Below are positions 5,895-55,756 of a stretch of DNA of 64,000 nt, one piece after another. The translations under genes and the position numbers were made by a program. The DNA is from a bacterium (lineage in GTDB: Bacteria; Patescibacteriota; Gracilibacteria; Peribacterales; Peribacteraceae), in NCBI GenBank assembly GCA_029558515.1, contig JAKQEM010000024.1, positions 57,164 through 121,163 of the forward strand, read 5' to 3'. The notes below the pieces were generated by a model, which ran no database searches, was not told where the DNA came from, and was given only the letters and a program-made list of their open reading frames with translations. Each line of letters opens with the position of its first letter. Position 1 is the stretch's first letter.

Positions 5895-6058
5895 GGCGCC
5901 GCCACAGGGGGTGAAGGGGGAGCCCCGCCACAAAGCGTTCGCGAGGCGATTGTGACTGAAGCCTTGGAAGGAGCAATCGCCGAGCCGCGGGGCGGGCGGA
6001 GGGGCATTGGCGGCGCCGTCCTTTCTTGGTCACTTCTTTGGACGGGCAAAGAAGTGAC
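5895..6058 (+). other. Nested-stem structured element plus a 12-bp hairpin upstream of the FemAB gene
   Basis: GGCGCCGCC (5895-5903) pairs with GGCGGCGCC (6009-6017). GGCGATTG (5945-5952) pairs with CAATCGCC (5974-5981). GTCACTTCTTTG (6029-6040) pairs perfectly with CAAAGAAGTGAC (6047-6058). Confidence 0.35.
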
Positions 6059-6092
6059 AAATAAAGAAACAACTTCCGCTATCATCCTCCCG

Positions 6093-7223
6093 ATGCACGT
6101 CCAACCCGCCACCGATGCTCAAGCTTGGGAATCGTTCCTGACGAACCGCCCTGATGCCCTCTTTCTGCAAAGCTGGACGATGGGCGAAGTGTACCGGGAC
6201 ATCGGGCAGGAGCCCGTGCGATTGGAAATACGGAACGACTCGGGTGCCATCAGCGGCATCTGCCAAGCCATCGTGGTCCCGGCCCGGCGCGGCAGACACC
6301 TGATGGTGCAGTACGGACCGGTGCTGGAAGATCCCGCCGCCCTCTCTCCTCTCCTCGATACACTGAAAGACATCGCTCGAGATCATCATTGCTCTTTCCT
6401 TCGCATCAGCCCATTCTGGCCGGAATCCCAAATCCCAAATCCCAAATCCCAAATCCCCGATTCTCTTCCCTCACCGCTCCATCTGCTCTCTGAGTACACC
6501 TGGTACATTCCCCTGAGACAAATTGATCCATGGGCGGAATTACGAACAAGCGAATCAATGCATCAACGAATCAACGACTATGCGGCCCCCGTCACAGAAG
6601 AATCCATCCTGAAGAACATGCGCAAAACGACTCGCAACCTGATCGGCAGGGCACAACGTGAAGGCGTCACCGTCGTCGCCTCCTCCCATCCATCGGCAGA
6701 TCTGAACATCTACTTTCGGCTGCAGAAGGAAACGACGCACCGGCATGGATTCGTCCCGTATCGCGACTCCTTCATCCGCGCACAGGTGGCGCACTTCGCA
6801 CCCAAAGGACAAGCCATCGTGTACATCGCACGGTACAAAGACGAACCGGTCGCCGCATCGGTCCACATGAGCTACGCAAGCATCACCAGCTACCATCACG
6901 GCGCCTCCACGCACAAGTACGCCAAAATCCCCGCAAGTTACCTGCTGCAATGGACCGCGATTCGTGAAGCCCTGCATCGCGGCGACTGTGTCTACAACTT
7001 CTGGGGCATCGCTCCGCCGAGTCATGAGTCTCGAGTCTTGAGTGATGAGCAACCGCTCAAAACTCACCGCTCCGGACACCCCTTCGCCGGCGTCACCACG
7101 TTCAAAACTGGATTCGGCGGAAAACCTCTCCCGCTGATGCACTGCCGCGATGTGCCCCTTTCCCGCACGTACCGATTCACGCGAGCATTTGAGACGGTGC
7201 GCAAGTGGAAACGAGGATTCTAG
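6093..7223 (+). CDS. FemAB-family peptidoglycan interpeptide-bridge aminoacyltransferase
   Basis: FLQSWTMGEVY, NMRKTTRNLIGRAQREGV, YHHGAST, YLLQW and FKTGFGG match the FemAB/lipid II peptidyltransferase pattern. Start is at the ATG at 6093 (MHVQP). Confidence 0.75.
   Translation: MHVQPATDAQAWESFLTNRPDALFLQSWTMGEVYRDIGQEPVRLEIRNDSGAISGICQAIVVPARRGRHLMVQYGPVLEDPAALSPLLDTLKDIARDHHCSFLRISPFWPESQIPNPKSQIPDSLPSPLHLLSEYTWYIPLRQIDPWAELRTSESMHQRINDYAAPVTEESILKNMRKTTRNLIGRAQREGVTVVASSHPSADLNIYFRLQKETTHRHGFVPYRDSFIRAQVAHFAPKGQAIVYIARYKDEPVAASVHMSYASITSYHHGASTHKYAKIPASYLLQWTAIREALHRGDCVYNFWGIAPPSHESRVLSDEQPLKTHRSGHPFAGVTTFKTGFGGKPLPLMHCRDVPLSRTYRFTRAFETVRKWKRGF
6424..6458. repeat. In-frame AATCCCA heptamer array in the FemAB gene
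   Basis: AATCCCA x4 followed by AATCCCC, translated SQIPNPKSQIP. Confidence 0.9.
7023..7050. repeat. In-frame NNTGAGT heptamer array in the FemAB gene
   Basis: CATGAGT CTCGAGT CTTGAGT GATGAGC. This is the reverse complement of the AAGACT/GAGACT word family seen at 30448-30468 and 50255-50310. Confidence 0.7.
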
Positions 7224-7239
7224 AAGGTACACTCTCTGC

Positions 7240-7725
7240 ATGCCTCGCAAAGTCACCACCTCCGAAGAAAAATCCGCTGCCACTCCTTCCGGCGGTCCGG
7301 CCCCGGCCTCCGCACCGAAGATCCCCGCCCCGGCTCCGGAAGCGTCGACCCTCGCCGTTTCCACCGGGCTTGGCGAAGTGCAGGACCGCTTGGATATGGT
7401 GCTCCTGTATCTGCACAACATGGACCGTCGCGACAAGTGGCGCACAAGAGGAGGATTCCTGCGGGGTCTCATTTCGATCATCCCCGTCCTCATCGCCGTG
7501 TGGGCCGCGTGGTACTTCTACATGTACGGCGACATCCTCATGAAGAAACTCACCATGGAAGTGGTGCGCCAGTCGGCCGCCTACTCCGAGAACACCATGG
7601 AGAATCGCATCCAACAGCTCGTGCCCCTCATTGAGAATTTGACCATTCCCGATGACCGGCTCCCTCCTGCATCACCCCCCGCCGACTCAGAGCCACCTGC
7701 AGAAGCAGTGTTGCCGGAGGAATGA
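7240..7725 (+). CDS. Hypothetical membrane protein (one TM, Pro/Ala-rich N-terminus)
   Basis: ATG at 7240. The TM segment is LISIIPVLIAVWAAWYFYMY. No family was recognised. Confidence 0.5.
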   Translation: MPRKVTTSEEKSAATPSGGPAPASAPKIPAPAPEASTLAVSTGLGEVQDRLDMVLLYLHNMDRRDKWRTRGGFLRGLISIIPVLIAVWAAWYFYMYGDILMKKLTMEVVRQSAAYSENTMENRIQQLVPLIENLTIPDDRLPPASPPADSEPPAEAVLPEE

Positions 7726-7865
7726 TCAGGCAATCAGCGCCTTCCACTCGCTCCACGAAAGTCCTCTCCCGGGATACGCGGAATTCTTGAAGGGCCACGC
7801 ATCGTGCATCCACTGTCACACAGGGCAATACAACACGTCCTTGAGCCCGCTTTTTCCCCTATCCC

Positions 7866-7910
7866 ACCTCCTTCGTCCCTAGTCCCTAGTCCCCCGTCCT
7901 CATCCCTCCC
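7866..7910. repeat. TCGTCCC/TAGTCCC heptamer array at the 3' end of a convergent gene
   Basis: TCGTCCC TAGTCCC TAGTCCC CCGTCCT CATCCCT. The stop codon of the 7900..9336 gene lies inside the array. Confidence 0.8.
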
Positions 7911-9336
7911 CCTTCGCAAATTTCACCACCTCCTCCGCCGTCATGGTGGGAAAGACGGCGAATGCAGGAATGCGGAGGAACTCGGAGCGCGAGAACGTGC
8001 GCTTGCCGCCGTCGGTGATGCCAAAGAGATAGCCGGCACCGGCGGAAAGCGTGGCGATGCGATCATTGGTACCGCCCGAGGGATACGCGACGGCGAAAAC
8101 CGTCCTGCCGGTGACCTGCTCCAACAGAGCCCGACTCTGCGTGAGTTCCAATTCCGCCTGCGCATTGGTCAGCGCGCGCAGATCATCGCCCGTGTGCGTA
8201 CCCGACTGCAAATCGAAACCATTGGCCAGAAGCGTCTGCACCGTTTTCTCCGTGATGCCCGTCAACCCCAAATATTTGGAACTGATGAAGAGCGTCGCAT
8301 CGATACTGAGCGCATTGAGCGTATCGGAAATGGCAGAAACGTTGACAGGCGTCACACCCGATACCGCCACGACGATGCGGTTCTCCGGCAAACGAACGTC
8401 ACGACCCTGCTGCTCCAGAAGGAGTGCGTGAAACTGCCGCAGAGTGATGAACGTGTACCCCGCCTGCTTGAGAGCACCGACGTGCGCACCCATCGATTGC
8501 AGCGCCTCCTCCGTCGCCCCGTCCAAACGATAGAGGAGCACGGGAAGCGTAAACGTATCCTGTCGAACGAGGAAGTTGGGACGGATGGCTGTCAGATAGG
8601 ACAGCGATACGAAGCCTGATTTGCCTTCGTGCGTCACTGCCGCCCAACCGTTTTCCACAGCCGTCGGGCGCAGGAGCGTCTGCCCGGGAATTTCTCCCAA
8701 TTTCGCACTCTGCTGACTGGGTTCACTGCGAAAGTTCACAAATCTGTAACTCACCACATACAGATTGTCATACGCCTTCTGTTCCTCCTCCAGTCGTTCT
8801 TCACTGACGACCCTGCCGATGTACCGATGCGCCACGAAGCCTTCCGTCCCGTCCGGTAAGCGCACCTTGGCCCACTCGCCGTCGACAAATTCCACCAGAT
8901 CGAGCGGATCCCCCCGATCCAATCGTCTCAAAAATGCACCCCGGGCGGAGGGAGCATTGCGAAAATTGAGGAACGTATTGGTGACCTGGAAACGTTTCTG
9001 ATCCGTCGTGGGAGTGGTGCGCATCGCATCGAAGGCCGCAGCATTCGATATATCCAACACCGCCGTCCGCTGCCCTCCCGTTCCCGTCACGATCATGCCG
9101 GTTCCTCCGGCAATCGATTCCAGATACGGAACGGGAAGCTCTGACCCTGACGCGGCATCCCCCCCTTCCGCCAGATCGCGGTACCGGGCAACATCATCCT
9201 CTGTGAAACTATAGACATCCTCGGGCAGTTCCGGAGGCGCACACCCTGCAAAGAGGATGCCGAATGCCGCAAGCAGTAAAAACGCAATGAGCGGGCGGCG
9301 CGAGGAACAGCGACGGTGGACGACGAAACGTGACAT
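7900..9336 (-). CDS. Lipoprotein with two SH3b-like domains and a polysaccharide-deacetylase (NodB)-like C-terminal domain
   Basis: Lipobox LFAGC. There are two FRNAPS/FRSEPS ... GWAKV/GWAAV SH3b-like units. The C-terminus follows the NodB order (ATLFISSKYLG ... GFDLQSGTHTGDDL ... FAVAYPSGG), but TFDDG is replaced by VAVSGV. Confidence 0.55.
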   Translation of the reverse strand: MSRFVVHRRCSSRRPLIAFLLLAAFGILFAGCAPPELPEDVYSFTEDDVARYRDLAEGGDAASGSELPVPYLESIAGGTGMIVTGTGGQRTAVLDISNAAAFDAMRTTPTTDQKRFQVTNTFLNFRNAPSARGAFLRRLDRGDPLDLVEFVDGEWAKVRLPDGTEGFVAHRYIGRVVSEERLEEEQKAYDNLYVVSYRFVNFRSEPSQQSAKLGEIPGQTLLRPTAVENGWAAVTHEGKSGFVSLSYLTAIRPNFLVRQDTFTLPVLLYRLDGATEEALQSMGAHVGALKQAGYTFITLRQFHALLLEQQGRDVRLPENRIVVAVSGVTPVNVSAISDTLNALSIDATLFISSKYLGLTGITEKTVQTLLANGFDLQSGTHTGDDLRALTNAQAELELTQSRALLEQVTGRTVFAVAYPSGGTNDRIATLSAGAGYLFGITDGGKRTFSRSEFLRIPAFAVFPTMTAEEVVKFAKGEG

Positions 9337-11239: not shown

Positions 11240-12082
11240 GTGAATCGGAAACTACGCTCAGCGGTCCTCACAGCGTTCGTCGGCCTCCTGCTCGCAAGTT
11301 GCGCGCACGATGACGAGGAAACGGCGGAGGCGCCCACGGTGGCCGGCGCCGCATCCGGCGTGGAATGGTCCTGGCAGATTGCGCACGACCCGATCAACGT
11401 GCGCCGGCTGCGACCGTCTGCGCTGCTGGGCACGTACACAGCGCAGTACATCATCCAGCTGTCCACGTTCGGCAGCGCACTGGATGGCATTCAGGCGTAC
11501 GTGGATCTGCGGGGAGACACGGAAGCGAATCGTGACGAGGATTTTGCACTGCTCGAAACGCTGGGAGCAGCTCTGCAAACCGACATTCCGGATATGCTCA
11601 ACCGCAGTCCCGTGCGTGCCACGGCCTTCGATGCGTACGTCGGCAGTTTGGCGGATGTCATGCGTCGTGCAAACGCGCGACTCGAACGGCTGGAACAGGA
11701 GCTGGAGACGATCAACGACGATCGCAGGACGAGACGGCAGGAAGCCGGCGTGATCCAGCGCGAACTCAATGCGGCGCTGCGTGAGGACAAGTACGCGCTG
11801 GCCAGTGAAATCCAGCAACGGCTGCTGGCGGCTGAAATCGCCCTCTCGGAAATCGAAGCCAAGGAGGACACGCAACGCAGCCTCATACGGCTCTACGAAA
11901 AACTGCTGACCCTGGGAGAACGCCGCCTCGTTTCCATGCACGAGAACCGCGAAATACTCATTGCGGGACTGAAAGTCATCGAATTGCCCGGCATCGACGC
12001 CCTGGGCATCCTGGAGCAGGGTGACACCCGGGCGCTGCGCAGGGACGGCGGTCCGTATGAATTCCTGTTTGACGGGCTGTAA
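11240..12082 (+). CDS. Hypothetical coiled-coil lipoprotein, probably co-transcribed with the VirB4-like ATPase
   Basis: GTG start, lipobox LLLASC, and a long heptad-like helical C-terminus. Its stop is 5 nt before the next ATG. Confidence 0.55.
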   Translation: MNRKLRSAVLTAFVGLLLASCAHDDEETAEAPTVAGAASGVEWSWQIAHDPINVRRLRPSALLGTYTAQYIIQLSTFGSALDGIQAYVDLRGDTEANRDEDFALLETLGAALQTDIPDMLNRSPVRATAFDAYVGSLADVMRRANARLERLEQELETINDDRRTRRQEAGVIQRELNAALREDKYALASEIQQRLLAAEIALSEIEAKEDTQRSLIRLYEKLLTLGERRLVSMHENREILIAGLKVIELPGIDALGILEQGDTRALRRDGGPYEFLFDGL

Positions 12083-12087
12083 CCAAA

Positions 12088-14031
12088 TTGAAGAATGCAG
12101 TGTTTTCTGCTATGATAAGAGGAAAGTCACTTATGCCAAACACACAGAACTCCCCGCCGGCCTCTCCCCGTCCCCGTGCCGCGAACCCCGCCATCGAGGC
12201 CATCGATGAATTACTGGGGCTCCATGGCAAACCGGGGAAAGAGAACGAGCACGACAATCAGCCGGAAGACAAAACATTGACGCCGGAAGAGCGCGAACAA
12301 ATCAGGCACTACGAGCAAGGACTCCAGAAGATGCTCGATCTCATCGCCCCTGCGGGCATGCAGGTCCGTTCAAAAGAAATCGCGATGAATGACCAGCTCG
12401 TCCGGACGCTCTACTCGTTCAACTGGCCGAATTTCATCTACCCCAACTGGATGAGCACGACCATCAACCAGGACGTCACGATGGACATCGCGCACTACAT
12501 CTACCCGTCATCGAACAAAGCGATCATGAAAATGCTGCGCAAGAAGGTGGCGGAACTGCGCAGTTCCATTCGCATGCTGGAGCAACGAGGCATCGTCCGC
12601 GACCCCACGTTGGAAGCCGCGCTCCAGGACGCCGAGGAATTGCGTGATCTGCTCGCGCGCGGACAGGAGAAACTCTTCCAGTTCGGCATGTACGTCACGC
12701 TGTACGCCGATGACGAGGAGCGCCTGAAGAAGATCCAGACGGACGTGGAATCCGTACTGGGAGGGAAATTGATCCTCACCAAACCGGCGTACTTCCAAAT
12801 GGAGCACGGATGGACTTCCACGCTCCCCATCTGCCAGGACGAACTGGAGATCAACCGCAACATGAACACATCGCCGCTGGCCGCCAGCTTCCCCTTCTCC
12901 AGCAGCGATCTCACCGACGACCACGGCATTCTCTACGGCATCAACCGACACAACGACTCCCTCGTGATTTTCGATCGATTCGACATGCCCAACGCCAACA
13001 GCAACATCTTCGCGACCTCCGGCGCGGGTAAGTCCTTCACGGCCAAGCTGGAACTGCTGCGGTATCTGATGCAGGGGACCGAAGTACTCGTCATCGATCC
13101 GGAGAACGAATACACCAATTTGTGCGAAGCCGTCAGCGGCTCATTCATTCCCCTCTCCATCCAGAGCCCCTTCCGCATCAACCCCTTCGATCTGCCCACC
13201 GCCATCCGCGGCGATGATGCGGAGACGGGCGAAGTGCTGCGTGCATCCGTCGTGAACCTCCACGGTCTCCTGCGTCTGATGCTCGGGCCCATCACGCCAT
13301 CGGAAGACGGTATTCTGGACAAAGCAATCCTCGATACCTACGCGCTCAACGGCATCTCACTGACGACGGAGAATCCCGGCGCCATCGAACCGCCCACGCT
13401 GGGGCAATTGGTCGATGTGCTGATGACGAGTGAAGGCGGCGAGAACATGGCTCGCATCCTGCAGAAGTACACGACGGGCAGCTTCGCGGGACTCTTTGAT
13501 CAAAAGACGAACGTGGAACTCGACCGGCAGATGATCGTCTTCCAGATTCGCGATTTGGAGGAGCAACTGCGCCCCATCGCCATTTACATCGTCCTGAATT
13601 TCCTCTGGAACCGCATCCGCTCCCAGATGCGCAAGCGCATCCTGGTGATCGACGAAGCCTGGAACCTGATGCAGCACGAGGACTCCGCGCGCTTCCTCTT
13701 CGGCATCGTGAAACGCGCACGCAAGTACTACCTGGGTGTCACCACCATCACGCAGGACGTGGACGACTTCGTGGAATCACCCTTCGGCAAAGCCATCATC
13801 ACAAACTCTTCGCTGCAAATCCTGCTCAAACAATCCCCCACCACTGTCGATAACCTGCAGAAACTCTTCTACCTGACGGACGGCGAGAAGAACGTCCTGC
13901 TCAATTCCGACGTGGGCCAGGGCATCATCTTCGCGGGATACAAGCACGTCGCGGTGCAGATCATCGCCGGGCCGGAGGAAGCCACGTTCATTACGACCAA
14001 GCCGTCGGAAATCATGAAGAAGAAAGAGTAA
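12088..14031 (+). CDS. VirB4/TraC (Tn916 Orf16/PrgJ)-like secretion ATPase lacking the N-terminal domain
   Basis: Middle domain is LIAPAGMQV ... YSFNWP ... DIAHYIYP. Walker A is TSGAGKSFT and Walker B is ILVIDEAW. YYLGVTTITQD is also present. Confidence 0.8.
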   Translation: MKNAVFSAMIRGKSLMPNTQNSPPASPRPRAANPAIEAIDELLGLHGKPGKENEHDNQPEDKTLTPEEREQIRHYEQGLQKMLDLIAPAGMQVRSKEIAMNDQLVRTLYSFNWPNFIYPNWMSTTINQDVTMDIAHYIYPSSNKAIMKMLRKKVAELRSSIRMLEQRGIVRDPTLEAALQDAEELRDLLARGQEKLFQFGMYVTLYADDEERLKKIQTDVESVLGGKLILTKPAYFQMEHGWTSTLPICQDELEINRNMNTSPLAASFPFSSSDLTDDHGILYGINRHNDSLVIFDRFDMPNANSNIFATSGAGKSFTAKLELLRYLMQGTEVLVIDPENEYTNLCEAVSGSFIPLSIQSPFRINPFDLPTAIRGDDAETGEVLRASVVNLHGLLRLMLGPITPSEDGILDKAILDTYALNGISLTTENPGAIEPPTLGQLVDVLMTSEGGENMARILQKYTTGSFAGLFDQKTNVELDRQMIVFQIRDLEEQLRPIAIYIVLNFLWNRIRSQMRKRILVIDEAWNLMQHEDSARFLFGIVKRARKYYLGVTTITQDVDDFVESPFGKAIITNSSLQILLKQSPTTVDNLQKLFYLTDGEKNVLLNSDVGQGIIFAGYKHVAVQIIAGPEEATFITTKPSEIMKKKE

Positions 14032-18298: not shown

Positions 18299-18682
18299 TC
18301 AGCTCAGCAGGCTGTGCAGAATGCCCACCACGAATGCAACGGCGACGAAGGCAATGAGCGCAAGAACCACCCCGAAGAGAGTGTACTGCACGATTTTCTT
18401 GGCTTCATCCCTCCCCTCTTCCCCACCGAGAATCAAACGAATGCCCGCGTACATGACGAGCCCGACCGCCAATGCCCCGATGATGGAAAAGGCAAATGTG
18501 ATGATGCGCGATGTGAAGAACGCCACCGCCTCCGACGGACTCTTACCGGAGAGAGAGAATTGACCGGTAATCATCTGCCACATCGCACTGACCCCCGCAC
18601 CCCGCGTTCCGACAGTATCGAGCGTATTGGCATGCGCGACGGAAGAGGACAGGAAAAGCCGGACGAGCGAAGCAATGAACAT
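18299..18682 (-). CDS. Small two-TM secreted protein, T4SS-pilin-like (third of a tandem trio)
   Basis: Signal-like N-terminus followed by two hydrophobic helices separated by GGEEGRDEAKK, the TrbC/VirB2-like architecture common in CPR. ATG at 18682. Confidence 0.6.
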   Translation of the reverse strand: MFIASLVRLFLSSSVAHANTLDTVGTRGAGVSAMWQMITGQFSLSGKSPSEAVAFFTSRIITFAFSIIGALAVGLVMYAGIRLILGGEEGRDEAKKIVQYTLFGVVLALIAFVAVAFVVGILHSLLS

Positions 18683-18690
18683 GGAAGAAA

Positions 18691-19296
18691 TCAGGGAAAG
18701 AGAACGGCAAGCGCGCGAAGAAGCGCGGGACCGAGGTTGATGGCAAGAGCGCCGAAGATGGCGCCGATGATCATCGTTTTGCCTTTGGTGAATTCCTCCT
18801 GCTTGCCCTGGGCGTACACCATGCGAATGCCGGCGATCACCGTCACGATGACGAAGGTGATATTGAGAATGACGCGCGCCGAAGTGATGAACGCAGCGAA
18901 GAGATTCCCGACGAGAGTCAGCGGATCGCCGGTCGCCTGTCCGAAATCGGTCGTCCCCACGACGCTCACGATGACCTGCGCCGAAATGACGAGCACGAGC
19001 CCCAGGAGCGCGTAGAGCACATTCCAACGCCCTTTGCTGATCTTGCTCTCATCACCCATGGAGAGCAGCATGGTGAACCCCGACCAGATGATGACTGCCA
19101 GGGCGATGGCCGTGGCGATGTTCAGCATCCACACGAGCACGATCGGCGCATTCTTGGCCACAATGTTCGCGGTGCCGCTCCCGCAACCGATGAGCGGATT
19201 ACATACGATCGTAGGAGGGGGCGGAATCGGCTGCGCCCACGCCGTCTCCGGCGCAAGGAATCGTACGAAGCCGTTGAAAACCGATGCGATCGTCAC
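18691..19296 (-). CDS. T4SS-pilin-like membrane protein (second of the trio; longer, four hydrophobic segments)
   Basis: GTG start at 19296 overlaps the upstream TGA (GTGA). Signal-like VTIASVFNGFVRFLAPETAWA. SMGDESKISKGR lies between helices. Confidence 0.55.
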   Translation of the reverse strand: MTIASVFNGFVRFLAPETAWAQPIPPPPTIVCNPLIGCGSGTANIVAKNAPIVLVWMLNIATAIALAVIIWSGFTMLLSMGDESKISKGRWNVLYALLGLVLVISAQVIVSVVGTTDFGQATGDPLTLVGNLFAAFITSARVILNITFVIVTVIAGIRMVYAQGKQEEFTKGKTMIIGAIFGALAINLGPALLRALAVLFP

Positions 19297-19733
19297 GGAG
19301 CGTCGATGTAGAAAATCGGATTGAGCGTACTCAGGATGATATCGGCAAGGCCGATGATGAGGAGCCCGGCGAGCGCCCACAGGAGCCGTTCCTGCCCCGC
19401 GCTCCGCATGGTCGTGTTATCACCCGAGAGCATGATCTGGATGCCGCCGATGAGCGCCCACAGCACCGCGATGCCCGCCGCGCTCCCCAGCACCCACGGC
19501 CAAGTCGCATTGAAGTACTGAAAGAGCATGTTCATGCCGGCTGACGGCGGAAACTGCGTCACGTTCGGATCGACGGGCTCCAGCAGAATGAGGTTGGTGG
19601 GCGGCACGAATCCGGCGGATTGCGCGGACACTTGCAGCGACAGAGAACAGGTTCCGAATGCAATGACAAGTGAGAGAACACCGATGGAGAGCAATCGGGT
19701 CACCATCCGTTGGTGGTGCGGGTGTATGTGCAT
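19293..19733 (-). CDS. T4SS-pilin-like membrane protein (first of the trio)
   Basis: Signal peptide ...LQVSAQS followed by two helices flanking LSGDNTTMRSAGQER. Confidence 0.6.
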   Translation of the reverse strand: MHIHPHHQRMVTRLLSIGVLSLVIAFGTCSLSLQVSAQSAGFVPPTNLILLEPVDPNVTQFPPSAGMNMLFQYFNATWPWVLGSAAGIAVLWALIGGIQIMLSGDNTTMRSAGQERLLWALAGLLIIGLADIILSTLNPIFYIDAP

Positions 19734-31513: not shown

Positions 31514-31885
31514 ATGATGCGCTTTCGTTCTCTCATCGCGCTCCCCTCCCTGCTTGTTGCCCAAATGGCCTCTGCGCAACCGCTTCCTTCTGTAATCACG
31601 AACAAATGGGGAAACACCTGCGACTTCACCACGGGCAACCTCGATCCCTCCTGCATCCCCCTCTTCATCGGTCATCTCATTCAATTGGTGATGGGACTGG
31701 TCGGGACGTTCTTCCTGTTCAACATCATGTTCGCCGGTTATCAGATCGCCATCGGCGCGTGGAGCGGCGAGAAATCCAAGGGCAAGGACCGCTTGCTGTG
31801 GTCCGTCATCGGCCTGATCATCTGCGCCAGTGCGTTCCTGATCCTGGATGTCATACTGACAGTCGTGCTCGTTTCTCCCATCTGA
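31514..31885 (+). CDS. T4SS-pilin-like two-TM secreted protein
   Basis: Signal peptide ...AQMASAQ, followed by two helices flanking AWSGEKSKGKDR. Same architecture as 18299..19733. Confidence 0.6.
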   Translation: MMRFRSLIALPSLLVAQMASAQPLPSVITNKWGNTCDFTTGNLDPSCIPLFIGHLIQLVMGLVGTFFLFNIMFAGYQIAIGAWSGEKSKGKDRLLWSVIGLIICASAFLILDVILTVVLVSPI

Positions 31886-36016: not shown

Positions 36017-36046
36017 TTGGCCATCAGACCGCTTTTATGCTATACT
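36017..36046 (+). promoter_or_regulatory. Extended -10 promoter for the prgI/virB4-N pair
   Basis: TTGGCC (36017-36022), an 18-nt spacer, TGC-TATACT (TG at 36038-36039, -10 at 36041-36046), with the ATG at 36071. Confidence 0.4.
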
Positions 36047-36070: not shown

Positions 36071-36721
36071 ATGCCCATCGAACCGATCAAAATCCCGCAG
36101 AACGTCTACATCGAGGATCGCATCGTCGGTCCGCTGACGCTCAAGCAACTGATCATCAGCACCATCGGCTGCGGATTCAGCTACGCACTGTTCGCGGTCC
36201 TGAGCAAGGCCATGGGCGGCACCCCGCCGCTTCCCGTAACGATACTGGTGTGGATACCGGGCGCGCTCTCCATTCTCTTCGCTTTCGTGCGCATCAACGA
36301 CTTGAGCATGCTCCACCTCCTCCTGCTGCTGGTGGAAAAAGCCAACAAGCCCGCCACCCGCATATGGGCGCCCCGCCGGGGCATCACCATCAACTTCCGC
36401 ACAACCATGATGGAGAAACCGAAAGCAGCGACTCCCCAAACACCCGAACACAGCATGCCGCGCATCGATGAACTCAGCTCCATTCTGGATCTTCCTTCGG
36501 CTGCATCCATCGCGCGGCACACGCACAAAGAGGAGGCGAACCTCCCGGGAAATGCGCAGGAGGAAGAAGCACCATCAACGCCCCGTCCCGTCGATCCGTC
36601 GCGCATCGCTGTGACTCCGCTGCAGGATACCGACCTGATGGACATCACGCCCGCCAAGCCGGCTGCACCGACCGCAGGCACCGTCTCCATCTTCCGAGAT
36701 CTCTCCCCCCGCCGGGCATGA
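36071..36721 (+). CDS. PrgI-family (VirB3-like) membrane protein
   Basis: IPQNVYIEDRIVGPLTLKQLIISTIGCGFSYALF followed by a second TM segment is the PrgI pattern. The C-terminus is long and disordered. Confidence 0.7.
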   Translation: MPIEPIKIPQNVYIEDRIVGPLTLKQLIISTIGCGFSYALFAVLSKAMGGTPPLPVTILVWIPGALSILFAFVRINDLSMLHLLLLLVEKANKPATRIWAPRRGITINFRTTMMEKPKAATPQTPEHSMPRIDELSSILDLPSAASIARHTHKEEANLPGNAQEEEAPSTPRPVDPSRIAVTPLQDTDLMDITPAKPAAPTAGTVSIFRDLSPRRA

Positions 36722-37434
36722 GTACGCCAAAACTGACCGGCACCGTGCGCACACGCAAGAGGAGCGTCACCACCGCCACCCAGCGGTTCCTGCCGATTGC
36801 CGAAATCCGCAACGATTCCGTCATCCTGAAGAACGGGGGTCTGCGCGCCGTCATCGAGGTGGAAGCACTGAACTTCAACTTGAAGAGCGAAACGGAACAG
36901 CAGGCCATCATCGCCGGATACGGCGCATTCATGAATACCCTCACCTTCCCGCTGCAGATCGTCATTCGTTCCACCAAGACAAACATCGATGACTACCTGA
37001 CGACGATCCGCACGCTGGGGGAGAAACAGGACAATGTGCTGCTGAAGAATCAAACGTTGGCCTACGCCGACTTCATGCAGCGGCTCATTGAAGTCGCCGA
37101 AATCATGCAGAAGCGCTTCCTGATCGTCGTTCCCATGGACCATGGGATGCGCAAAAAGACACTCATCGAGCAATTCTTCGACTGGCTCAATCCCGATGAC
37201 ACGGCCTCCAAAGCAACGGTCCGACGCCGAGATTTCAACAGCGGCATCAAGCTCCTCAATGAGCGCGTCGAACTCGTTTCCTCGGGACTGAGCAACATCG
37301 GTCTGCATCTCAAGCGCCTCTCCACCCGTCAGCTCATCGAACTCTACTATCAGATCTACAACCCGAAGAACGCCCAGACGCAAAAGATCCCGAACAATGA
37401 GGAGCAGCTGCAGATGCAGGGGATGACATTGTGA
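36718..37434 (+). CDS. Stand-alone N-terminal domain of a VirB4/TraC (Orf16/PrgJ)-type ATPase
   Basis: QRFLPIAEIRNDSVILKNGGLRAVIEVEALNFNLKSETEQQAIIAGYGAFMNTLTFPLQIVIRS matches the N-terminal domain pattern of Gram-positive VirB4 proteins. There are no Walker motifs. The start overlaps the prgI stop (ATGA). Confidence 0.65.
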   Translation: MSTPKLTGTVRTRKRSVTTATQRFLPIAEIRNDSVILKNGGLRAVIEVEALNFNLKSETEQQAIIAGYGAFMNTLTFPLQIVIRSTKTNIDDYLTTIRTLGEKQDNVLLKNQTLAYADFMQRLIEVAEIMQKRFLIVVPMDHGMRKKTLIEQFFDWLNPDDTASKATVRRRDFNSGIKLLNERVELVSSGLSNIGLHLKRLSTRQLIELYYQIYNPKNAQTQKIPNNEEQLQMQGMTL

Positions 37435-41950: not shown

Positions 41951-42385
41951 CTACTTTGCAGCCTCTGCCTCCCTCTCCGCACACCGCTTGAAGGAATCCA
42001 AAATCGCCTGCCAGCCCTGCCGCTGCATTTCCACCGAATTCTCCTCTTCGGCATCAAACGTTTCGGTGATTGATGTTTCGCCTTCCCGATCCTCAAACTC
42101 CACGGTAACCGTCCGCCCGTCGTCCATGGTGTACGCAAGGCGCTGCTGCGGAATGACTTCCGTAAAGGTACCGGCAAAATCGAAGCCCTCACTCCCATCC
42201 TTCGCCTCCATCCGACTCATGAACGTGCCGCCTTCCCGCAAATCCGTCGTGGCGCGGGGCGTGTGCCAATCGTCGGATGCGGCGTTCCACCGCATGATAT
42301 GTTTGGGTTCCGTCCAGAATTTCCAAGCGGTTTCCACGGGAACGGCAACAGCGGTTTTGACGGTGATGCGGGTACGTTCAGTCAT
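41951..42385 (-). CDS. SRPBCC/AHSA1-like domain protein
   Basis: ITVKTAVAVPVETAWKFWTEPKHIMRWN ... GWQAILDSFK matches the Aha1/START-like fold pattern. Confidence 0.7.
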   Translation of the reverse strand: MTERTRITVKTAVAVPVETAWKFWTEPKHIMRWNAASDDWHTPRATTDLREGGTFMSRMEAKDGSEGFDFAGTFTEVIPQQRLAYTMDDGRTVTVEFEDREGETSITETFDAEEENSVEMQRQGWQAILDSFKRCAEREAEAAK

Positions 42386-42484
42386 CGGGAATAATGACGC
42401 ACACAGAGGGAAATCGTATACGAGAATCGTAAGGAAACTGCGGGCACTACGTCCTAGAATCATCGTTTTTCTCCCCCCTTTCCC

Positions 42485-42856
42485 ATGCGTTACGTTGATG
42501 GATTCGTCCTCGCGGTTCCCAGAAACAAGCTCGATGCGTACAAGAAAATGGCCGGCGACGGCGGCAAATTGTGGATGAAGCACGGCGCCCTGGAGTACGT
42601 GGAAGCCGTGGGTGATGACATGGAGCCGGACATGGGCGGCATGAAGGCACTGACATTCCCCAAGCTCACGAAGCTGCAGGATGACGAAGTCCCGATCTTC
42701 TCATTCATCGTGTATCGTTCCAAAGCGCACCGCGACCGTGTGAATGCGAGAGTCATGGAGGAAATGCAGGGTCAACCTCCTCCCGACATGCCCTTCGACA
42801 TGCAGCGCATGGCGTACGGCGGGTTTCAGGCGTTCGTAGATAAGGCACAGAAATAA
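42485..42856 (+). CDS. DUF1428-family protein
   Basis: MRYVDGFVLAVPRNKLDAYKKMA...WMKHGALEYVE...FSFIVYRSKAHRDRVN matches the DUF1428 pattern. Confidence 0.8.
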   Translation: MRYVDGFVLAVPRNKLDAYKKMAGDGGKLWMKHGALEYVEAVGDDMEPDMGGMKALTFPKLTKLQDDEVPIFSFIVYRSKAHRDRVNARVMEEMQGQPPPDMPFDMQRMAYGGFQAFVDKAQK

Positions 42857-42993
42857 CCTGCATCACCGCACCTCCCTTGCGCCGGCGGCGCGTGCGGCCC
42901 GGGTGAATATTGAAATATTTGGAGCGGGTTACTGGAAAGTATTACAACTATGGTGTTCCACGATAAGGTCTGTTCTTACAGTGGGCGATGCCG

Positions 42994-44106
42994 TTAGGTG
43001 CCGTATGAATCTTCTTGAATTTTTTGTATTCTCTCTAGCTCTTTCAGTAAAGTTTCCCGCGCTGCTGCCTCTAAGTTCATTGTGAGCAATCGCAAGATAT
43101 AGTGAGGCATAATTTTTGCTGCCGAGCATGTATTAAAACTCGGATCCCTTCGCATTACGCCACGAGTGTATTTGCGATCGTGACCCTCGGGTTCTCGGCC
43201 CCATGCAATTCCATTTGCATGTTCTAATGCTGCTGGCATGTGTTCGGATGTGACAAGCTCTTCGTTCTCTAAATATTCCCCAATAATTTTTTCCGCAGAT
43301 GCTTTGTGTTCTTCTGGTATTAATAATACGATGTTGTCATATCGTCGCGGAATATAATAGGGTTCAGAAGCTTTGCCAGTTACGGGAATCCCAGCATTCT
43401 TTAGTAGATTAATAAGTGCAATAAAATGGATACCCACATCATTTCTGTGTTCCGTATTCAGTGTGATATATAATCTCAAAACATTCGAATTACGCCAGAA
43501 ATCTACATTCTCCGGTTTATCAATATGCAGAAAGGAAAACCCTGATAACGTTGGATCGCAGATAAAGTGTTCTTCCGATCGAAACTGACCTGCCATTGCC
43601 TCAAGATTCGATGCAAACTCTTGAGTGTATACAGGAGGAAAAGAGGCATTGGTATTTCGGATTTCTTCAGCTCGTCTCTGAGCTTTCTCAATTGCCTCTT
43701 TCCGTAACGAAGCCCTTTGTGATTGATCTGGTTTCTCAGATGTGGGGCGTTCTACAAGCTGGTTATAGACATGATCCGCAATTCCCAAATGAGGAATTTC
43801 AAAACCTAAGCACTCTCGAACATCATCAATACTAAGGCCTACAAACTCTTTTGGAGTCTTCAGTTGCTCTGCAGGTATCGGGAAACTCATTGCCAGATCA
43901 TGATACTTTATCTCTTCTCCCTTTGGTTTAGAGCCGAGAAGATGATCAATATTGACTGTGAAATGAGTAGTGTTCACCCCGTCGGATGTGGGTGACATTG
44001 TATCTTTCGAGACGTCCTTGTCCGAATCTTGGTATTCGTTGTGCACTTGAATATTATAACATATATAAATATTATTACAATGGATCGGGTAACCCATTGT
44101 GTGCAC
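42994..44106 (-). CDS. Hypothetical protein in the AT-rich island
   Basis: A 370-codon ORF in AT-rich DNA. The LRLYITLN ... RRYDNIVLLIPEE segment is faintly reminiscent of HopA1-type effector-family proteins (unverified). The start is uncertain. Confidence 0.55.
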   Translation of the reverse strand: MHTMGYPIHCNNIYICYNIQVHNEYQDSDKDVSKDTMSPTSDGVNTTHFTVNIDHLLGSKPKGEEIKYHDLAMSFPIPAEQLKTPKEFVGLSIDDVRECLGFEIPHLGIADHVYNQLVERPTSEKPDQSQRASLRKEAIEKAQRRAEEIRNTNASFPPVYTQEFASNLEAMAGQFRSEEHFICDPTLSGFSFLHIDKPENVDFWRNSNVLRLYITLNTEHRNDVGIHFIALINLLKNAGIPVTGKASEPYYIPRRYDNIVLLIPEEHKASAEKIIGEYLENEELVTSEHMPAALEHANGIAWGREPEGHDRKYTRGVMRRDPSFNTCSAAKIMPHYILRLLTMNLEAAARETLLKELERIQKIQEDSYGT

Positions 44107-44114
44107 GATGCCCT

Positions 44115-44351
44115 CTATAAATGTTTCTTCGCGAATGCCCGGCCAGAGTGTGACTTGAGATACCGTTCGAACTTCTCTGCTCGTTTGCGATCTGTAAATG
44201 CGGTTAAGCTTTTCAGGTGCCAGGGTTTGTATTGATTCGTGTGGATTGACTTCCCATCATTATGCTCTGATAAGCGACACCGGACATCGTCAGTGATTCC
44301 TACATACCAGTGAATGCCGTCTTCGGAGTCGAGGGAGTAGACGAAAAACAT
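44115..44351 (-). CDS. Small GIY-YIG nuclease-domain protein (YhbQ/UPF0213-like)
   Basis: MFFVYSLDSEDGIHWYVGITDDVRCRLSEHN ... RKRAEKFERYLKS. ATG at 44351. Confidence 0.75.
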   Translation of the reverse strand: MFFVYSLDSEDGIHWYVGITDDVRCRLSEHNDGKSIHTNQYKPWHLKSLTAFTDRKRAEKFERYLKSHSGRAFAKKHL

Positions 44352-44487
44352 AGTGGTTGAGTATGCCCGGCTTCGTCCGATTTTGCCACGCAAAATCGAG
44401 ACTCCGCCGTGGCACCCTCGGTTTTTTGGGAAGACGTGGCAGCAGAAACCGCGGCGTAGTGCGACGAACGGAGTGAGTCGCACGGAA

Positions 44488-45051
44488 CTAAAATTCTTCA
44501 GAAAATCTCCTTCTTTGTTCTGCCACGATAACATTGATATTTTCAGTGGGTCTGACCAGAGTTCCGTCTGCGTACATAGTCCTTTCCATCTGTGCAACCT
44601 GTGTATGCACCTTCCTGAGAGTTGCAGGGTCTATACCATCCAAACCTTCATTGTAAACATCATCGGCATTTACCCCCGAAGGCAATTTTCCCTTCTGTTT
44701 GGAATAATCACGAAAATGAAACAGTTCCACCCCCTCAAAGCTCACACGAAATGTACCCGCCAAATCATCTGTAGATTTTGTTACTTCAATAGTCATAAAT
44801 GGAGGATTCTTTCTGTCATAAGCTGTCGCATTATCAGATACTTTTTTAATGATCGTGATCTCACCTCCATCAGGTGCATATCTTGTAACAATTCTTCTTG
44901 GATTTAATATATAAATGTAATTTTCATCTTCAATTCTTGTTCTATCCTTCGCTTTCAAAAGGTCACAAAGAATTGAATTTTGCAACAAAGATACGGTCTT
45001 CCTACGTTCTACAAGTTGGTCTGGTACTGATAAATTCGAGGGAGTATTCAT
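44488..45051 (-). CDS. Hypothetical protein in the AT-rich island
   Basis: ATG at 45051 (MNTPSNL). The longer ORF upstream is only the translated tRNA antisense. No family recognised. Confidence 0.5.
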   Translation of the reverse strand: MNTPSNLSVPDQLVERRKTVSLLQNSILCDLLKAKDRTRIEDENYIYILNPRRIVTRYAPDGGEITIIKKVSDNATAYDRKNPPFMTIEVTKSTDDLAGTFRVSFEGVELFHFRDYSKQKGKLPSGVNADDVYNEGLDGIDPATLRKVHTQVAQMERTMYADGTLVRPTENINVIVAEQRRRFSEEF

Positions 45052-45086
45052 GAAAATATAATAAACCTTATTACCTAATTTGTCAA

Positions 45087-45160
45087 TGGAGCGGGTAACG
45101 GGAATCGAACCCGTATCCTCAGCTTGGAAGGCTGATGTACTACCACTGTACGATACCCGC
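45087..45160 (-). tRNA. tRNA-Gly (TCC)
   Basis: The reverse complement gives GCGGGTA..TCAGC-CTTCCAA-GCTGA..ACGGG-TTCGATT-CCCGT-TACCCGC-T-CCA. Confidence 0.9.
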
Positions 45161-45243
45161 TGGGAGAAAGACCGAACGGACCAAAAAAACACCACATCCG
45201 ACCAAAGTATACGGCGTCCGGCCGTTCCTGTGAAGAATACAAA

Positions 45244-45501
45244 TCACCCCACACCCTTCGCCTCAGTCTGTTCCTGTCGCCAAAGCAGATATCCCCGTAC
45301 ATTCAGCAACGACAACCCGACATTGGCAATCAGTAAACCCGACGATTGGATCATCAACCCAATAACCAGCCACAGTATGTTGCCTACCAACGTACAAAGA
45401 AAACCTACCTTATATTTGTTACCCAATAGCCAAATGCCTGCGAACGTCACCGCCGTCGCGAGGAGATCGATCCCGTAGTACTGACTGAACCAAGAGAGCA
45501 A
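45244..45501 (-). CDS. 85-aa three-TM protein resembling the first repeat of a PnuC transporter
   Basis: TTG start. The pattern LLATAVTFAGIWLLGNKYKVGF..LVGNILW....LLIANVGLSLLNVRGYLLW mirrors the PnuC N-terminal three helices. Confidence 0.4.
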   Translation of the reverse strand: MLSWFSQYYGIDLLATAVTFAGIWLLGNKYKVGFLCTLVGNILWLVIGLMIQSSGLLIANVGLSLLNVRGYLLWRQEQTEAKGVG

Positions 45502-45510
45502 GCGCCTGCA

Positions 45511-45786
45511 TTATACAATTCCCTTCGCCTCTTCGTACACCGTGGAACGATGACCAAAGAGAAGGATCTCCACAACATCGCCGTGGAGGCGGTAGATAAT
45601 ACGATAATCGCCGACACGAAGTGCGCGACAGCCGCGCAGAGACTGCTGAAGCGGCTTGCCATAGTGCAGTGGGTCAACGGCCACCTTCTGCTCAAGAGCA
45701 TGCAGCAAACGCTTTTTGTCGTGCAGAGACAACTTCTCGAATCGCTTCCAATCGACAAACTCGCTATAGAGCAGACGGTACTTCAT
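45511..45786 (-). CDS. relE: Type II toxin, RelE/ParE family
   Basis: LRGCRALRVGDYRIIYRLHGDVVEILLFGHRSTVY is the RelE/ParE C-terminal signature. Confidence 0.8.
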   Translation of the reverse strand: MKYRLLYSEFVDWKRFEKLSLHDKKRLLHALEQKVAVDPLHYGKPLQQSLRGCRALRVGDYRIIYRLHGDVVEILLFGHRSTVYEEAKGIV

Positions 45787-46013
45787 AGCACTTGAGCCCA
45801 GAATTCCTCATGCGACAACCACTTGGTGGTTTTCTCCACTCTTTCATCGGCAATGGCACTGAAGTAGGCGTCCTCCTCGATCTCCAATGCTTTCTCAATG
45901 AGTTCCAACGCCTTCGCAGACTGCGAAACATCATCGCGCAACGCCATCTTCTCCAAGAATATCGCAGTATCATGCGGAAGAGTCAGGTTCAGTCGCTTCT
46001 TCTTTGTAGGCAT
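45783..46013 (-). CDS. Cognate antitoxin (ribbon-helix-helix-like)
   Basis: KKKRLNLTLPHDTAIFLEKMA is an RHH-like strand-helix start. Its stop overlaps the toxin ATG (ATGA). Confidence 0.65.
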   Translation of the reverse strand: MPTKKKRLNLTLPHDTAIFLEKMALRDDVSQSAKALELIEKALEIEEDAYFSAIADERVEKTTKWLSHEEFWAQVL

Positions 46014-46225
46014 GGGATCGGGGGAAAACTGCGATAAGTGTAACACCGGTGTTACACCTTTACAAGGTGCAAAGAGTCCACATCCCTCTCCCGATCCCCT
46101 ACACTCTCCCCGTGGTCATTTCTCATTTTGCATTTTTTACCCTGAGCGAGTCAGCCGCAGATGACGAGTCGAAGGGCGCATTTCTCCTCATCAATTATCA
46201 ATTTTCCATTATCCATTCCTCTCCG

Positions 46226-46864
46226 ATGCTCCTCACCCTCTTTTTCTCCCTCAATCTTTTCCTGACACCTTCCGTCTCCGCGCAGGAAGCCGCCTGCCTG
46301 CCGAGGATCACCGATGCCGTGCCTTCTTCTATTCAAATAGACCGAGTGGAGCGCGTGTGGCTCAGTTGGAACAATCGCCTCCGCCGCAGACTGAAACTGA
46401 CACCCTATGCACCCCATGCCGCCCTCACTGCCACGGCGACGGAGTGGTCTTTGCAAGCCAAGCAAAATGGCACCATCGACCATAAACGCTCTCCCGATGC
46501 CGCCTACTACGATTACACGATGATCGAGCAATGGTTTGCCGACCGCGGTTTGACGTTCGCCAATGTCAATCGTACCACCTTCACCGAAAATATCGGCTGG
46601 GGAACCTACACATGCACGACGGATGATTGCACGAGGTCGCTGATTCGCGCCGTGCGCAAGACCTTCAATTTTTACATGGCCGAGCGCTTGAAACCATCGC
46701 AGCCGCACTGGAAGAGTCTGGTGAATCCGGAGTTCCGACAGATCGGACTGGGGATTGCTGTGGACGAAGCGGCAGGACGCTACTACCTGACGGTTCACTA
46801 CGCCACGGAGATCACGTCGACTCCTCAGAGCTGCGCAGCGATGACTTATCGCACGGAGATATAA
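46226..46864 (+). CDS. Secreted CAP/SCP/PR1-like domain protein
   Basis: Signal peptide MLLTLFFSLNLFLTPSVSAQEA, followed by NIGWG and HWKSLVNPEFRQIGLGIA, which are CAP motifs. Confidence 0.7.
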   Translation: MLLTLFFSLNLFLTPSVSAQEAACLPRITDAVPSSIQIDRVERVWLSWNNRLRRRLKLTPYAPHAALTATATEWSLQAKQNGTIDHKRSPDAAYYDYTMIEQWFADRGLTFANVNRTTFTENIGWGTYTCTTDDCTRSLIRAVRKTFNFYMAERLKPSQPHWKSLVNPEFRQIGLGIAVDEAAGRYYLTVHYATEITSTPQSCAAMTYRTEI

Positions 46865-48998: not shown

Positions 48999-50243
48999 AT
49001 GTCTCTCCACACCCTCATGTTCGGATGGGAGTATCCCCCGCTTCACTCGGGAGGATTGGGGGTGGCCTGTCAGGGGCTGGTGAAGGGACTCTTGAAGAAC
49101 GGCACACGCGTCACACTGGTCCTGCCGATGAACGCATCGCATGACGAAGGAGCGCAGCTTGCCATGCGCGGACCGGGACAAGGCATGGACGGCGACGAGC
49201 CCGATATTCGGTTCATCGAGAGTGCGTTGCAACCCTACGAGGGAACGGCGGAGTATGAAGAGCGTATGATTGCGGCGGCGACTGCAAACGGCCAACCGTT
49301 CATCGATCTCTACGGACCGGATCTCGGTCAGGCAGTCGAGCGATTCACGGCCATGAGCATCGAAAAGACGAAAGACGTGCAAGCGGACGTCGTCCACTGC
49401 CACGATTGGATGACCTACGATGCTGGAATCCGCGCGGCAACATACCATCGTAAACCGCTGGTTGCACACATCCATGCCACGGAACTCGATCGTACGGACT
49501 TCCATCCCAATCAGTGGATCGCCGAGCGCGAACGATCGGGCTTCCTGCAAGCGGATCGCATCATTGCCGTCAGCCAGTACACAAAAAATATTCTGGTACG
49601 ACACTACGGCATCGCCGCGGACAAGATCAGCGTGGTCCACAACGGCCACAACGTATCCGCGCCCGTCGCGCATCACAACACCATCGTGTCCTCTGCCATC
49701 CACAAGCGTGCGCCGCTCGTGCTCTTTGTGGGACGTCTCACGCTGCAGAAGAACCCGCGACAATTTTTGGACACGGCGAAGATCGTGCACGAGCTGCGTC
49801 CTGATGTGCAATTCGTGATGGCCGGCGACGGCCCGATGCTCCCCGAACTCATGGACCACGCCTGCGCGCTGGGCCTCACCGACTGCGTGTCCTTCACGGG
49901 CACGGTCACTCGCAAGGAAGTCGATCAGCTCTATAAATCGGCGGACTGCTTCGTGATGCCCTCCTTGAGTGAACCCTTCGGATTGGTTGCACTGGAAGCC
50001 ATCGCCCAAGGGACGCCCGTCATTCTCAGCAAACAATCCGGTGCGGCGGAAGTCATCGAACACGGATTCAAAGTCGATTTCTGGGACACGGATAAATTCG
50101 CCGACTGCATCCTCACAATCCTGCGGGAGCAACCGCTGGCCGAACAGCTCATCGCCGAAGCTCCGTCCATACTCCACCGCCTCAACTGGCAAAACCAAGC
50201 GAACAACGTGATGTCGATCTATAGAGACTTACTGAAGACGTGA
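48999..50243 (+). CDS. Glycosyltransferase, glycogen-synthase-like (GT4/GT5 GT-B fold)
   Basis: FGWEYPPLHSGGLGVACQGL is at the N-terminus. Other motifs are HCHDWMT and PSLSEPFGLVALEAIAQGTPVI. Confidence 0.75.
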   Translation: MSLHTLMFGWEYPPLHSGGLGVACQGLVKGLLKNGTRVTLVLPMNASHDEGAQLAMRGPGQGMDGDEPDIRFIESALQPYEGTAEYEERMIAAATANGQPFIDLYGPDLGQAVERFTAMSIEKTKDVQADVVHCHDWMTYDAGIRAATYHRKPLVAHIHATELDRTDFHPNQWIAERERSGFLQADRIIAVSQYTKNILVRHYGIAADKISVVHNGHNVSAPVAHHNTIVSSAIHKRAPLVLFVGRLTLQKNPRQFLDTAKIVHELRPDVQFVMAGDGPMLPELMDHACALGLTDCVSFTGTVTRKEVDQLYKSADCFVMPSLSEPFGLVALEAIAQGTPVILSKQSGAAEVIEHGFKVDFWDTDKFADCILTILREQPLAEQLIAEAPSILHRLNWQNQANNVMSIYRDLLKT

Positions 50244-50422
50244 GTGATGACTTATGAGACGTGAGATATGAGACATAAGACGTAAGACACAAGTAACCAG
50301 ATACGAGACAACGAGATAACGAACTAACGAATTCTCTCCACTCTCAACTCTCAACTCTCCACTCTCAACTCCCCCGTCCTTCGTCCTTCGTCCCTCGTCC
50401 TTAGTCCTTCCTCCCCCGTCCC
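50241..50422. repeat. 26 phase-locked heptamer words filling the whole spacer
   Basis: The sequence parses without a phase slip from the TGA at 50241 to the base before the ATG at 50423 (word list in the findings). Confidence 0.95.
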
Positions 50423-51817: not shown

Positions 51818-51833
51818 TTCAATCCCCTTCTTC

Positions 51834-55680: not shown

Positions 55681-55756
55681 CGGCGGAATCAAAACAGGAA
55701 CATTGCACCTCGTCCCCCATTCCGTCATTCTGTTCTCCGCCATTCCCACCGTCTGC

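Follow-up and report, generated by a model that had tools for sequence, protein, structure and literature searches.

VirB4 is encoded as two separate genes in the chromosomal T4SS of a Candidatus Peribacteria genome

Results

The DNA analysed here, called the window throughout, is a 64-kb stretch of a Candidatus Peribacteria genome (GTDB class Gracilibacteria, phylum Patescibacteria). The T4SS genes found in it all lie between 11.2 and 37.4 kb with housekeeping genes interleaved, and include a lipoprotein gene, the gene for a VirB4 core, three pilin genes (18.3-19.7 kb), a fourth pilin gene (31.5 kb), and a prgI-trsD pair. This is probably the chromosomal T4SS typical of Patescibacteria, which is related to the conjugation machinery of monoderms (MPF-FATA class). 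A Pfam scan of 34 ORFs of the window turned up neither a relaxase nor a VirD4-type coupling protein, which fits the non-conjugative, host-interaction role that has been proposed for the Patescibacteria system.

An earlier note on this DNA singled out two ORFs, 12088..14031 and 36718..37434, both on the forward strand, as the halves of a split VirB4. Both are present at these coordinates and on this strand, and every motif that it quoted was recovered, namely LIAPAGMQV...YSFNWP, the Walker A motif TSGAGKSFT, the Walker B motif ILVIDEAW, and the QRFLPIAEIRNDSV... stretch. The virB4 core gene lies upstream of the TrsD-like gene, 22,687 bp away, and a scan within the 64-kb window found each piece in single copy. 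The DNA between the two loci contains tRNA genes and GC dips.

The longest ORF of the core begins with a TTG at 12088 and would encode 647 aa. A ribosome-binding site, AAGAGGAAA, is found 8-13 nt 5' of an ATG at 12133, and the public gene call for the identical core protein is 632 aa, so the likely start is this ATG and not the TTG. Of the lengths originally proposed for the two products (238 + 647 aa), the first stands and the second is probably 632 aa. In order, the product of the VirB4 core gene (12133..14031, forward strand) has a disordered leader, then the second half of the VirB4 N-terminal domain, and lastly the ATPase domain at the C-terminus. The product of 12088..14031 scores above the curated cut-off of the NCBIfam model for CD1110-family VirB4 (NF045971; 346.6 bits against 325) while covering only positions 183-732 of 752, and in VirB4_plasma, a model of 894 positions, it matches 282-874. 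The core lacks what corresponds to ~180 residues at the start of full-length relatives and so has no complete N-terminal domain on its own polypeptide, the CD1110 match beginning at 183. Pfam identifies P-loop_TraG, AAA_10 and DUF87 in the core, residues 272-636 match the C-terminal domain of VirB4 in PDB 4AG5 (1.8e-46), and both Walker A (GAGKS) and Walker B (ILVIDEAW) are in place. Core residues ~165-250 correspond to the end of the Pfam N-terminal-domain models, that is, positions 283-374 of 375 in TraC_F_IV and 123-196 of 204 in CagE_TrbE_VirB (PF03135). From these Pfam, CD1110 and 4AG5 matches, the core is made up of its leader, followed by the second half of the classical N-terminal domain and then by the ATPase domain.

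The second gene (36718..37434, forward strand) is coupled to prgI and encodes a TrsD-like protein of 238 aa, which corresponds to the first sub-domain of the VirB4 N-terminal domain, detached from the rest. The protein matches positions 99-213 of VirB4_plasma (1.5e-11) and the TrsD/TraD model NF041427 of NCBIfam (8.4e-8, but with 32 bits against a curated cut-off of 200). Precomputed Pfam annotation assigns PF26593 'TraC-like' to the identical database protein and to each of its 120 listed homologues; this family is absent from the local Pfam scan of the small protein and from all of the 120 nearest core homologues listed. The 238-aa protein is probably a member of the TrsD-like family (PF26593 'TraC-like'), and the HMM searches on the two products, which had been suggested as a check, returned CD1110 VirB4 for the large one and VirB4_plasma and TrsD/TraD for the small one. 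The claim that the small gene encodes the missing N-terminal domain is right for the first sub-domain of the classical domain, which is all that it carries, and wrong for the second half, which stays on the core in the PF03135 and TraC_F_IV regions given above.

An AF2 model of the small protein, built from a 45-sequence alignment, reached a pLDDT of 86.2 and a pTM of 0.76. When this model was compared with the PDB by Foldseek, the top 14 matches were all TrwK/VirB4 chains of R388 (probability 0.97-1.00), with a best E of 1.7e-3, TM 0.42-0.48 over ~185-218 columns and an rmsd of 5-8 Å, the match being at the level of the chain. The predicted fold is therefore like that of a VirB4 N-terminal domain, by a match that is specific yet moderate. 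A PDB sequence search with the single 238-aa sequence gave chance TetR matches only, and a PDB search with the 45-sequence profile gave nothing, so that it is the fold comparison alone that ties the small protein to a solved VirB4. An earlier AF2 model, for which 16 close relatives had been aligned, had a pLDDT of 66 and TrwK matches with E of 0.018 or worse, and was replaced by the 45-sequence model.

The gene prgI (36071..36721, forward strand) encodes a PrgI/VirB3-like membrane protein of 216 aa (PF12666, 41.9 bits against a cut-off of 27), as the earlier note proposed, with predicted hydrophobic membrane helices at residues 26-44 and 52-70 and a long disordered C-terminal tail. A hydrophobic helix was found in neither the TrsD-like protein nor the core. 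The TGA of prgI and the ATG of the TrsD-like gene overlap as ATGA at 36718-36721, and the small gene does occupy the place where virB4 normally follows prgI. The TrsD-like gene is not situated between the virB3-like gene and virB4; it comes after prgI, and virB4 is 22.7 kb upstream. A promoter-like site is located at 36017-36046, 5' of prgI.

The gene named as the partner of the large piece, at 11240..12082 (forward strand), does encode a lipoprotein of 280 aa with a signal peptide, an L-A-S-C lipobox and a coiled-coil region. This protein matches no Pfam or NCBIfam family, has only 15 homologues (34-65% identical), and is fast-evolving. Its gene also lies directly upstream of the virB4 core in the Peribacteria genome CP082927 and in the SRR26784071 relative, and I regard it as a candidate T4SS accessory protein. 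Three VirB2-like pilin genes lie on the reverse strand downstream of metG (18299..19733, comprising 19293..19733, 18691..19380 and 18299..18682), with PF18895 T4SS_pilin matches of 3.1e-6, 3.6e-10 and 2.8e-7, and the array is homologous to a three-pilin array of CP082927. The fourth VirB2-like pilin gene (31514..31885, forward strand; 123 aa), found between dus and an AI-2E transporter gene, encodes a product 61% identical to that of a PF18895-annotated 130-aa gene at the same position in the relative L089.

Complementary pieces and natural fusions

Complementarity can be gauged from proteins in which the two pieces are naturally joined. In a 1344-aa fusion protein encoded on a Rubrobacter marinus plasmid, residues 14-209 of the small piece align to 114-313 (2e-11) and residues 82-639 of the core to 375-955 (6e-53). 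P0386, a metagenomic fusion protein of 898 aa, is matched by the small piece over residues 10-217 at 32% identity (3e-37) and by the core over residues 263-890 at 46% identity, and its Pro/Ala-rich linker lines up with the leader of the window's core. P0386 is a single ORF without internal stop, is present on several contigs, and directly follows and overlaps prgI. No homologue of the other genes in the compact P0386 cluster (1241, 309, 465 and 1428 aa) is found in the window. Since both fusion proteins align in this way and a TrsD-family HMM finds no match in the core ORF, the two pieces are in order and do not overlap. Together with the HMM positions, the two fusions establish the products as complementary parts of VirB4, as originally claimed. 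A three-way fusion of VirB3, TrsD and VirB4 finds no support, as no alignment was obtained between PrgI and the extension at the N-terminus of the Rubrobacter protein. Finally, residues 64-83 of the core align to residues 16-32 of short VirB4s from Firmicutes plasmids, which places the break at the same point, and the small protein weakly matches the N-terminal part of pCF10 PrgJ (E 0.027 in a search of 7 sequences).

Conservation and gene order

Close homologues of the small protein number 848, and those listed, the best 120, are 233-243 aa long. An exhaustive search of cluster representatives found 3,031 relatives of the small protein, and among the best 150 of these all but one are standalone, mostly 200-440 aa. 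The core is 75-89% identical across Peribacteria, and the close VirB4 core homologues listed are all from Peribacteria or Peregrinibacteria. Against the SRR26784071 relative, dN/dS is 0.09 for the trsD-like gene, 0.044 for the core, 0.15 for prgI and 0.11 for the lipoprotein gene, as compared to 0.044 and 0.16 for the housekeeping genes clpC and fmt; these values are approximate because dS exceeds 1 in all comparisons. The trsD-like and core genes are under purifying selection.

The arrangement is kept in relatives, a point that the earlier note had suggested be checked. CP082927.1, a closed Peribacteria genome of 1.24 Mb, has identical synteny with a gap of 27.4 kb, the core being flanked in the order argS-lipoprotein-virB4-DHH-fmt-metG-three pilins and the small gene in the order clpC-prgI-trsD-rpsA-HAD-HIT. 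The flanking genes are equally kept in a JGI contig and in a Logan relative. In a wider sample of TrsD-like loci from 80 species of Peribacteria, Peregrinibacteria and Gracilibacteria, prgI is directly upstream of the TrsD-like gene in 77, clpC and rpsA are neighbours in 54-55, and in none of the 80 does a VirB4 core occur in the flanks that were retrieved, which extend to 10 kb at most and reach 5 kb or more upstream in 61 loci and downstream in 44.

These observations bear on two simple explanations of the split. The pieces could be the decaying remains of a VirB4 that broke apart, or the functional VirB4 could be a full-length one elsewhere in the genome; the visible part of the genome is 64 kb and the large piece does begin with a disordered leader. 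However, the dN/dS of 0.04-0.09 is similar to that of housekeeping genes, lengths are uniform over hundreds of homologues, the same synteny is found in a complete genome, and prgI-trsD without a nearby virB4 recurs across the 80 species. Moreover, a second VirB4 sits poorly with the 2,474 VirB4 homologues reported from 2,417 Patescibacteria assemblies, about one per genome (PMC12102498). I therefore consider this explanation very improbable; the pieces, both intact, are functional and not the decaying duplicates that the earlier note had named as a refutation. Alternatively, the separation of 23 kb could be an assembly artefact or a recent rearrangement specific to this strain. The same flanking genes in the closed 1.24 Mb genome, the JGI contig and the Logan relative, as well as the clpC and rpsA neighbours in most of the sampled species, leave this next to no credence. 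Thus selection and synteny are the grounds on which the pseudogene, artefact and recent-rearrangement readings are rejected.

A third alternative is that the TrsD-like protein is an independent T4SS subunit, such as a partner of PrgI or an assembly factor, which has a common origin with the VirB4 N-terminus but does not rebuild VirB4 in trans, the short VirB4 working alone. This would account for the gene staying with prgI and not with virB4 in 77 of 80 species, and for its evolving about twice as fast as the core (79% versus 89% identity in one relative). On the other hand, the fusions put the TrsD-like part exactly at the N-terminus of VirB4, with a linker that corresponds in the alignment to the core's leader, the predicted fold matches VirB4 chains only, and in most Patescibacteria and in Firmicutes plasmids the TrsD-like gene directly precedes virB4. 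An independent subunit is therefore unlikely, and a VirB4 rebuilt in trans from the TrsD-like protein and the core is, with a probability of about 0.8, the best explanation.

Discussion

Relation to known systems

The separation of a TrsD-like gene from virB4 has already been described. Quiñonero-Coronel et al. (2025; PMC12102498) report that TrsD is remotely homologous to the N-terminus of VirB4 and that no other T4SS component is as abundant in Patescibacteria, TrsD having 2,272 homologues in 2,221 assemblies. In most Patescibacteria classes trsD and virB3 are near virB4, 'near' being defined as within 20 coding sequences, whereas in Gracilibacteria the genes for TrsD and VirB3 are not near virB4, and VirB3 is near it in just 4.7% of cases (PMC12102498). 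The supplementary text of that study, in the portion available here, does not name Peribacterales, and their placement within the class Gracilibacteria is taken from PMC10469934; Guglielmini et al. (2014) do not use the name TrsD in their main text. Because Peribacterales belong to Gracilibacteria, the window is an instance of the published pattern, and the spacing of trsD and virB4 in Peribacteria falls just past the limit of 20 coding sequences. A recent relocation finds no support, the separation being the published rule for Gracilibacteria (PMC12102498), from which none of the 80 species examined departs in the flanks described above. The location of prgI-trsD apart from virB4, among housekeeping genes, is an ancient state of the class. 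For other Patescibacteria classes, adjacency is drawn from the literature and from the plasmid examples, as the 80-species sample comprises only Peribacteria, Peregrinibacteria and Gracilibacteria.

Nor is the split itself unusual, as had been supposed, since a TrsD-like protein separate from a short VirB4 is found in Gram-positive plasmids of the pGO1 type and in nearly all Patescibacteria, ~2,200 genomes. Gram-positive conjugative plasmids of the pGO1/pSK41 type (TrsD + TrsE, an MPF-FATA subclass) likewise have a separate TrsD-like protein of ~200-330 aa and a VirB4 of ~635-656 aa without the N-terminal ~180 residues, with the same break point and with the TrsD-like gene after a VirB3-like gene (TrsC/PrgI). 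In the Brevibacillus plasmid CP139434, prgI, a gene for a 332-aa TrsD-like protein and a 635-aa DUF87 gene are consecutive, and in the B. subtilis plasmid CP120574, CagC, a TrsC-like gene and an annotated trsD (199 aa) are followed by a 656-aa DUF87 gene. In such plasmids, however, trsD and virB4 are adjacent within a conjugation operon that has a relaxase, whereas in the window they are 22.7 kb apart on a chromosome. The form of VirB4 with two genes is probably older than this lineage.

Another close likeness is to the T4SS of the Patescibacteria clade, as in Southlakia epibionticum ML1 (Wang et al., 2023; PMC12102498), which is also chromosomal and derived from MPF-FATA, has PrgI, TrsD and a short VirB4, and comes with VirB2-like pilin arrays and usually without a nearby relaxase. 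It differs in that trsD and virB3 are near virB4 in most classes, to which the window, with the other Gracilibacteria, is the published exception. Full-length VirB4s share with the window the sequence of prgI and then the VirB4 N-terminus in overlapping genes. PrgJ of pCF10 (796 aa) has a homologous ATPase core (PrgJ 336-772), and TrwK of R388 (PDB 7O41, 8RTB) provides the fold that the prediction for the small protein matches, but each of these is one polypeptide where the window has two, encoded at separate loci. The P0386 and Rubrobacter marinus proteins differ in being fused and in lying in compact T4SS clusters. Finally, the rvh T4SS of Rickettsia is similar in that its genes are scattered over several chromosomal islands (cited in PMC12102498), but it is a diderm MPF-T system in which VirB4 is not split as it is here.

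Proposed mechanism

VirB4 in this organism would consist of a TrsD-like protein of ~238 aa, with the fold of the first N-terminal sub-domain, and a core of ~632 aa, with the remaining N-terminal domain and the ATPase. The N-terminal domains of VirB4 in the R388 structure make contact with VirB3 and hold the hexamer at the membrane (PMC12857230). By analogy, the TrsD-like protein may be translated together with PrgI and bind it, as the R388 VirB4 N-terminal domain does with VirB3, and the TrsD-PrgI pair would then dock a soluble hexamer of VirB4 cores to the membrane, completing VirB4 in trans. A PrgI-TrsD membrane module of this kind, docking a soluble core, is in keeping with the conserved coupling of translation between prgI and the TrsD-like gene. 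With four pilin genes nearby, the machine probably builds a VirB2-like pilus and probably serves interaction with a host as opposed to conjugation.

Both loci have a promoter-like site of their own and are embedded in housekeeping operons. An unlikely but more novel suggestion is that uncoupling in Gracilibacteria makes TrsD-PrgI a separately regulated membrane receptor, which would control the time and place at which the ATPase hexamer is recruited. If so, this would be an assembly checkpoint that is impossible for a VirB4 made in one piece, or the uncoupling could allow TrsD-PrgI to serve a second partner.

Conclusions

VirB4 is the one universal T4SS component known, and its existence as two genes in Peribacteria is real, functional, ancient and already described, while assembly of the two products in trans is what I infer from them. 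Given that TrsD, its likeness to the VirB4 N-terminus, and the separation in Gracilibacteria have all been published, the window adds an example and supporting analysis and not a discovery; what is added here are the natural fusions, the fold match, and the gene-order counts of 77/80 and 0/80. In the single species in which this has been tested, epibiotic growth requires the Patescibacteria system, and TrsD is on the essential list of Southlakia epibionticum (PMC12102498). A VirB4 that is naturally divided at a defined sub-domain boundary offers a ready-made means of studying the assembly of the N-terminal module with VirB3 and the ATPase core.

Natural fusions of the TrsD-like piece and the VirB4 core

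The two VirB4 pieces that are separate genes in the window, the TrsD-like piece (36718-37434, +) and the ATPase core (12133-14031, +), occur elsewhere as one protein. In the Logan metagenomic locus L091 (DRR736425 contig, 6001-8697), a single ORF of 898 aa, also present on L092, encodes a TrsD-like domain, then a Pro/Ala-rich linker, then the VirB4 core. The fusion gene is directly preceded by prgI, and its compact cluster also includes genes for a 465-aa, a 1428-aa and an SLT-domain protein. The Rubrobacter marinus plasmid NZ_CP045122.1 likewise carries a fused TrsD-like region and VirB4 core in a 1344-aa ‘ATP-binding protein’ (L005, 4662-8696), with extensions of ~113 aa at the N-terminus and ~390 aa at the C-terminus. 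This N-terminal extension showed no alignment to PrgI.

Promoter-like sites and evolutionary rates of the two loci

In the window, a sigma-70-like match lies just 5' of the likely virB4 start (TTGAAG-17-TATGAT, in 12088-12135) and another just 5' of prgI (TTGGCC-18-TATACT, 36017-36046); both are consensus matches only, and both include an extended -10 TG. Because each locus has its own promoter-like match, the sequence suggests that virB4 and prgI are transcribed separately. The TrsD-like piece has evolved about two times faster than the core: compared with one and the same relative, it shows 79% amino-acid identity against 89% for the core, and a dN of 0.126 against 0.068.

Neighbouring T4SS components

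PrgI (36071-36721, +) has 216 aa in the window whereas the pCF10 form has 117, the surplus being ~120 poorly conserved C-terminal residues rich in Pro, Ala, Thr and Glu; in relatives it is roughly 140-223 aa long. The window has four genes for VirB2-like T4SS pilins (PF18895), three as an array after metG (18299-19733, -) and a solitary fourth flanked by dus and the gene for an AI-2E transporter (31514-31885, +), with prgI 4.2 kb farther downstream. The corresponding positions are likewise filled in relatives.

Always directly 5' of the VirB4 core is a lipoprotein gene (11240-12082, +) whose product contains a coiled-coil region and was assigned no family in Pfam or NCBIfam. Only 15 homologues were detectable, at 34-65% identity, whereas the adjoining ATPase retains 75-89%. 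The lipoprotein may be a rapidly evolving component of the T4SS, either at the surface or VirB7-like.

Other features of the window

GC is about 0.57-0.58 in most of the window and 0.46-0.49 at 42000-46000, a segment adjoining a tRNA-Gly gene (45087-45160, -) that may be an acquired island. Inside it, a 370-aa ORF (42994-44106, -) scored 22.3 bits (1.3e-4) against the HopA1 effector family, which is borderline given the cut-off of 22.7, and beyond it lies a CAP-domain protein gene (46049-46864). A second lower-GC stretch (0.50) holds two ORFs without a Pfam family, one of 353 aa (53901-54962, +) and one of 462 aa (55232-56620, +), and in the latter a single hydrophobic helix precedes a long helical region. 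Finally, the run of carbohydrate genes at 48999-53882 (+), encoding a GT4 glycosyltransferase, GH57 and GH15, is a gene cluster of storage-glucan type within a reduced genome.
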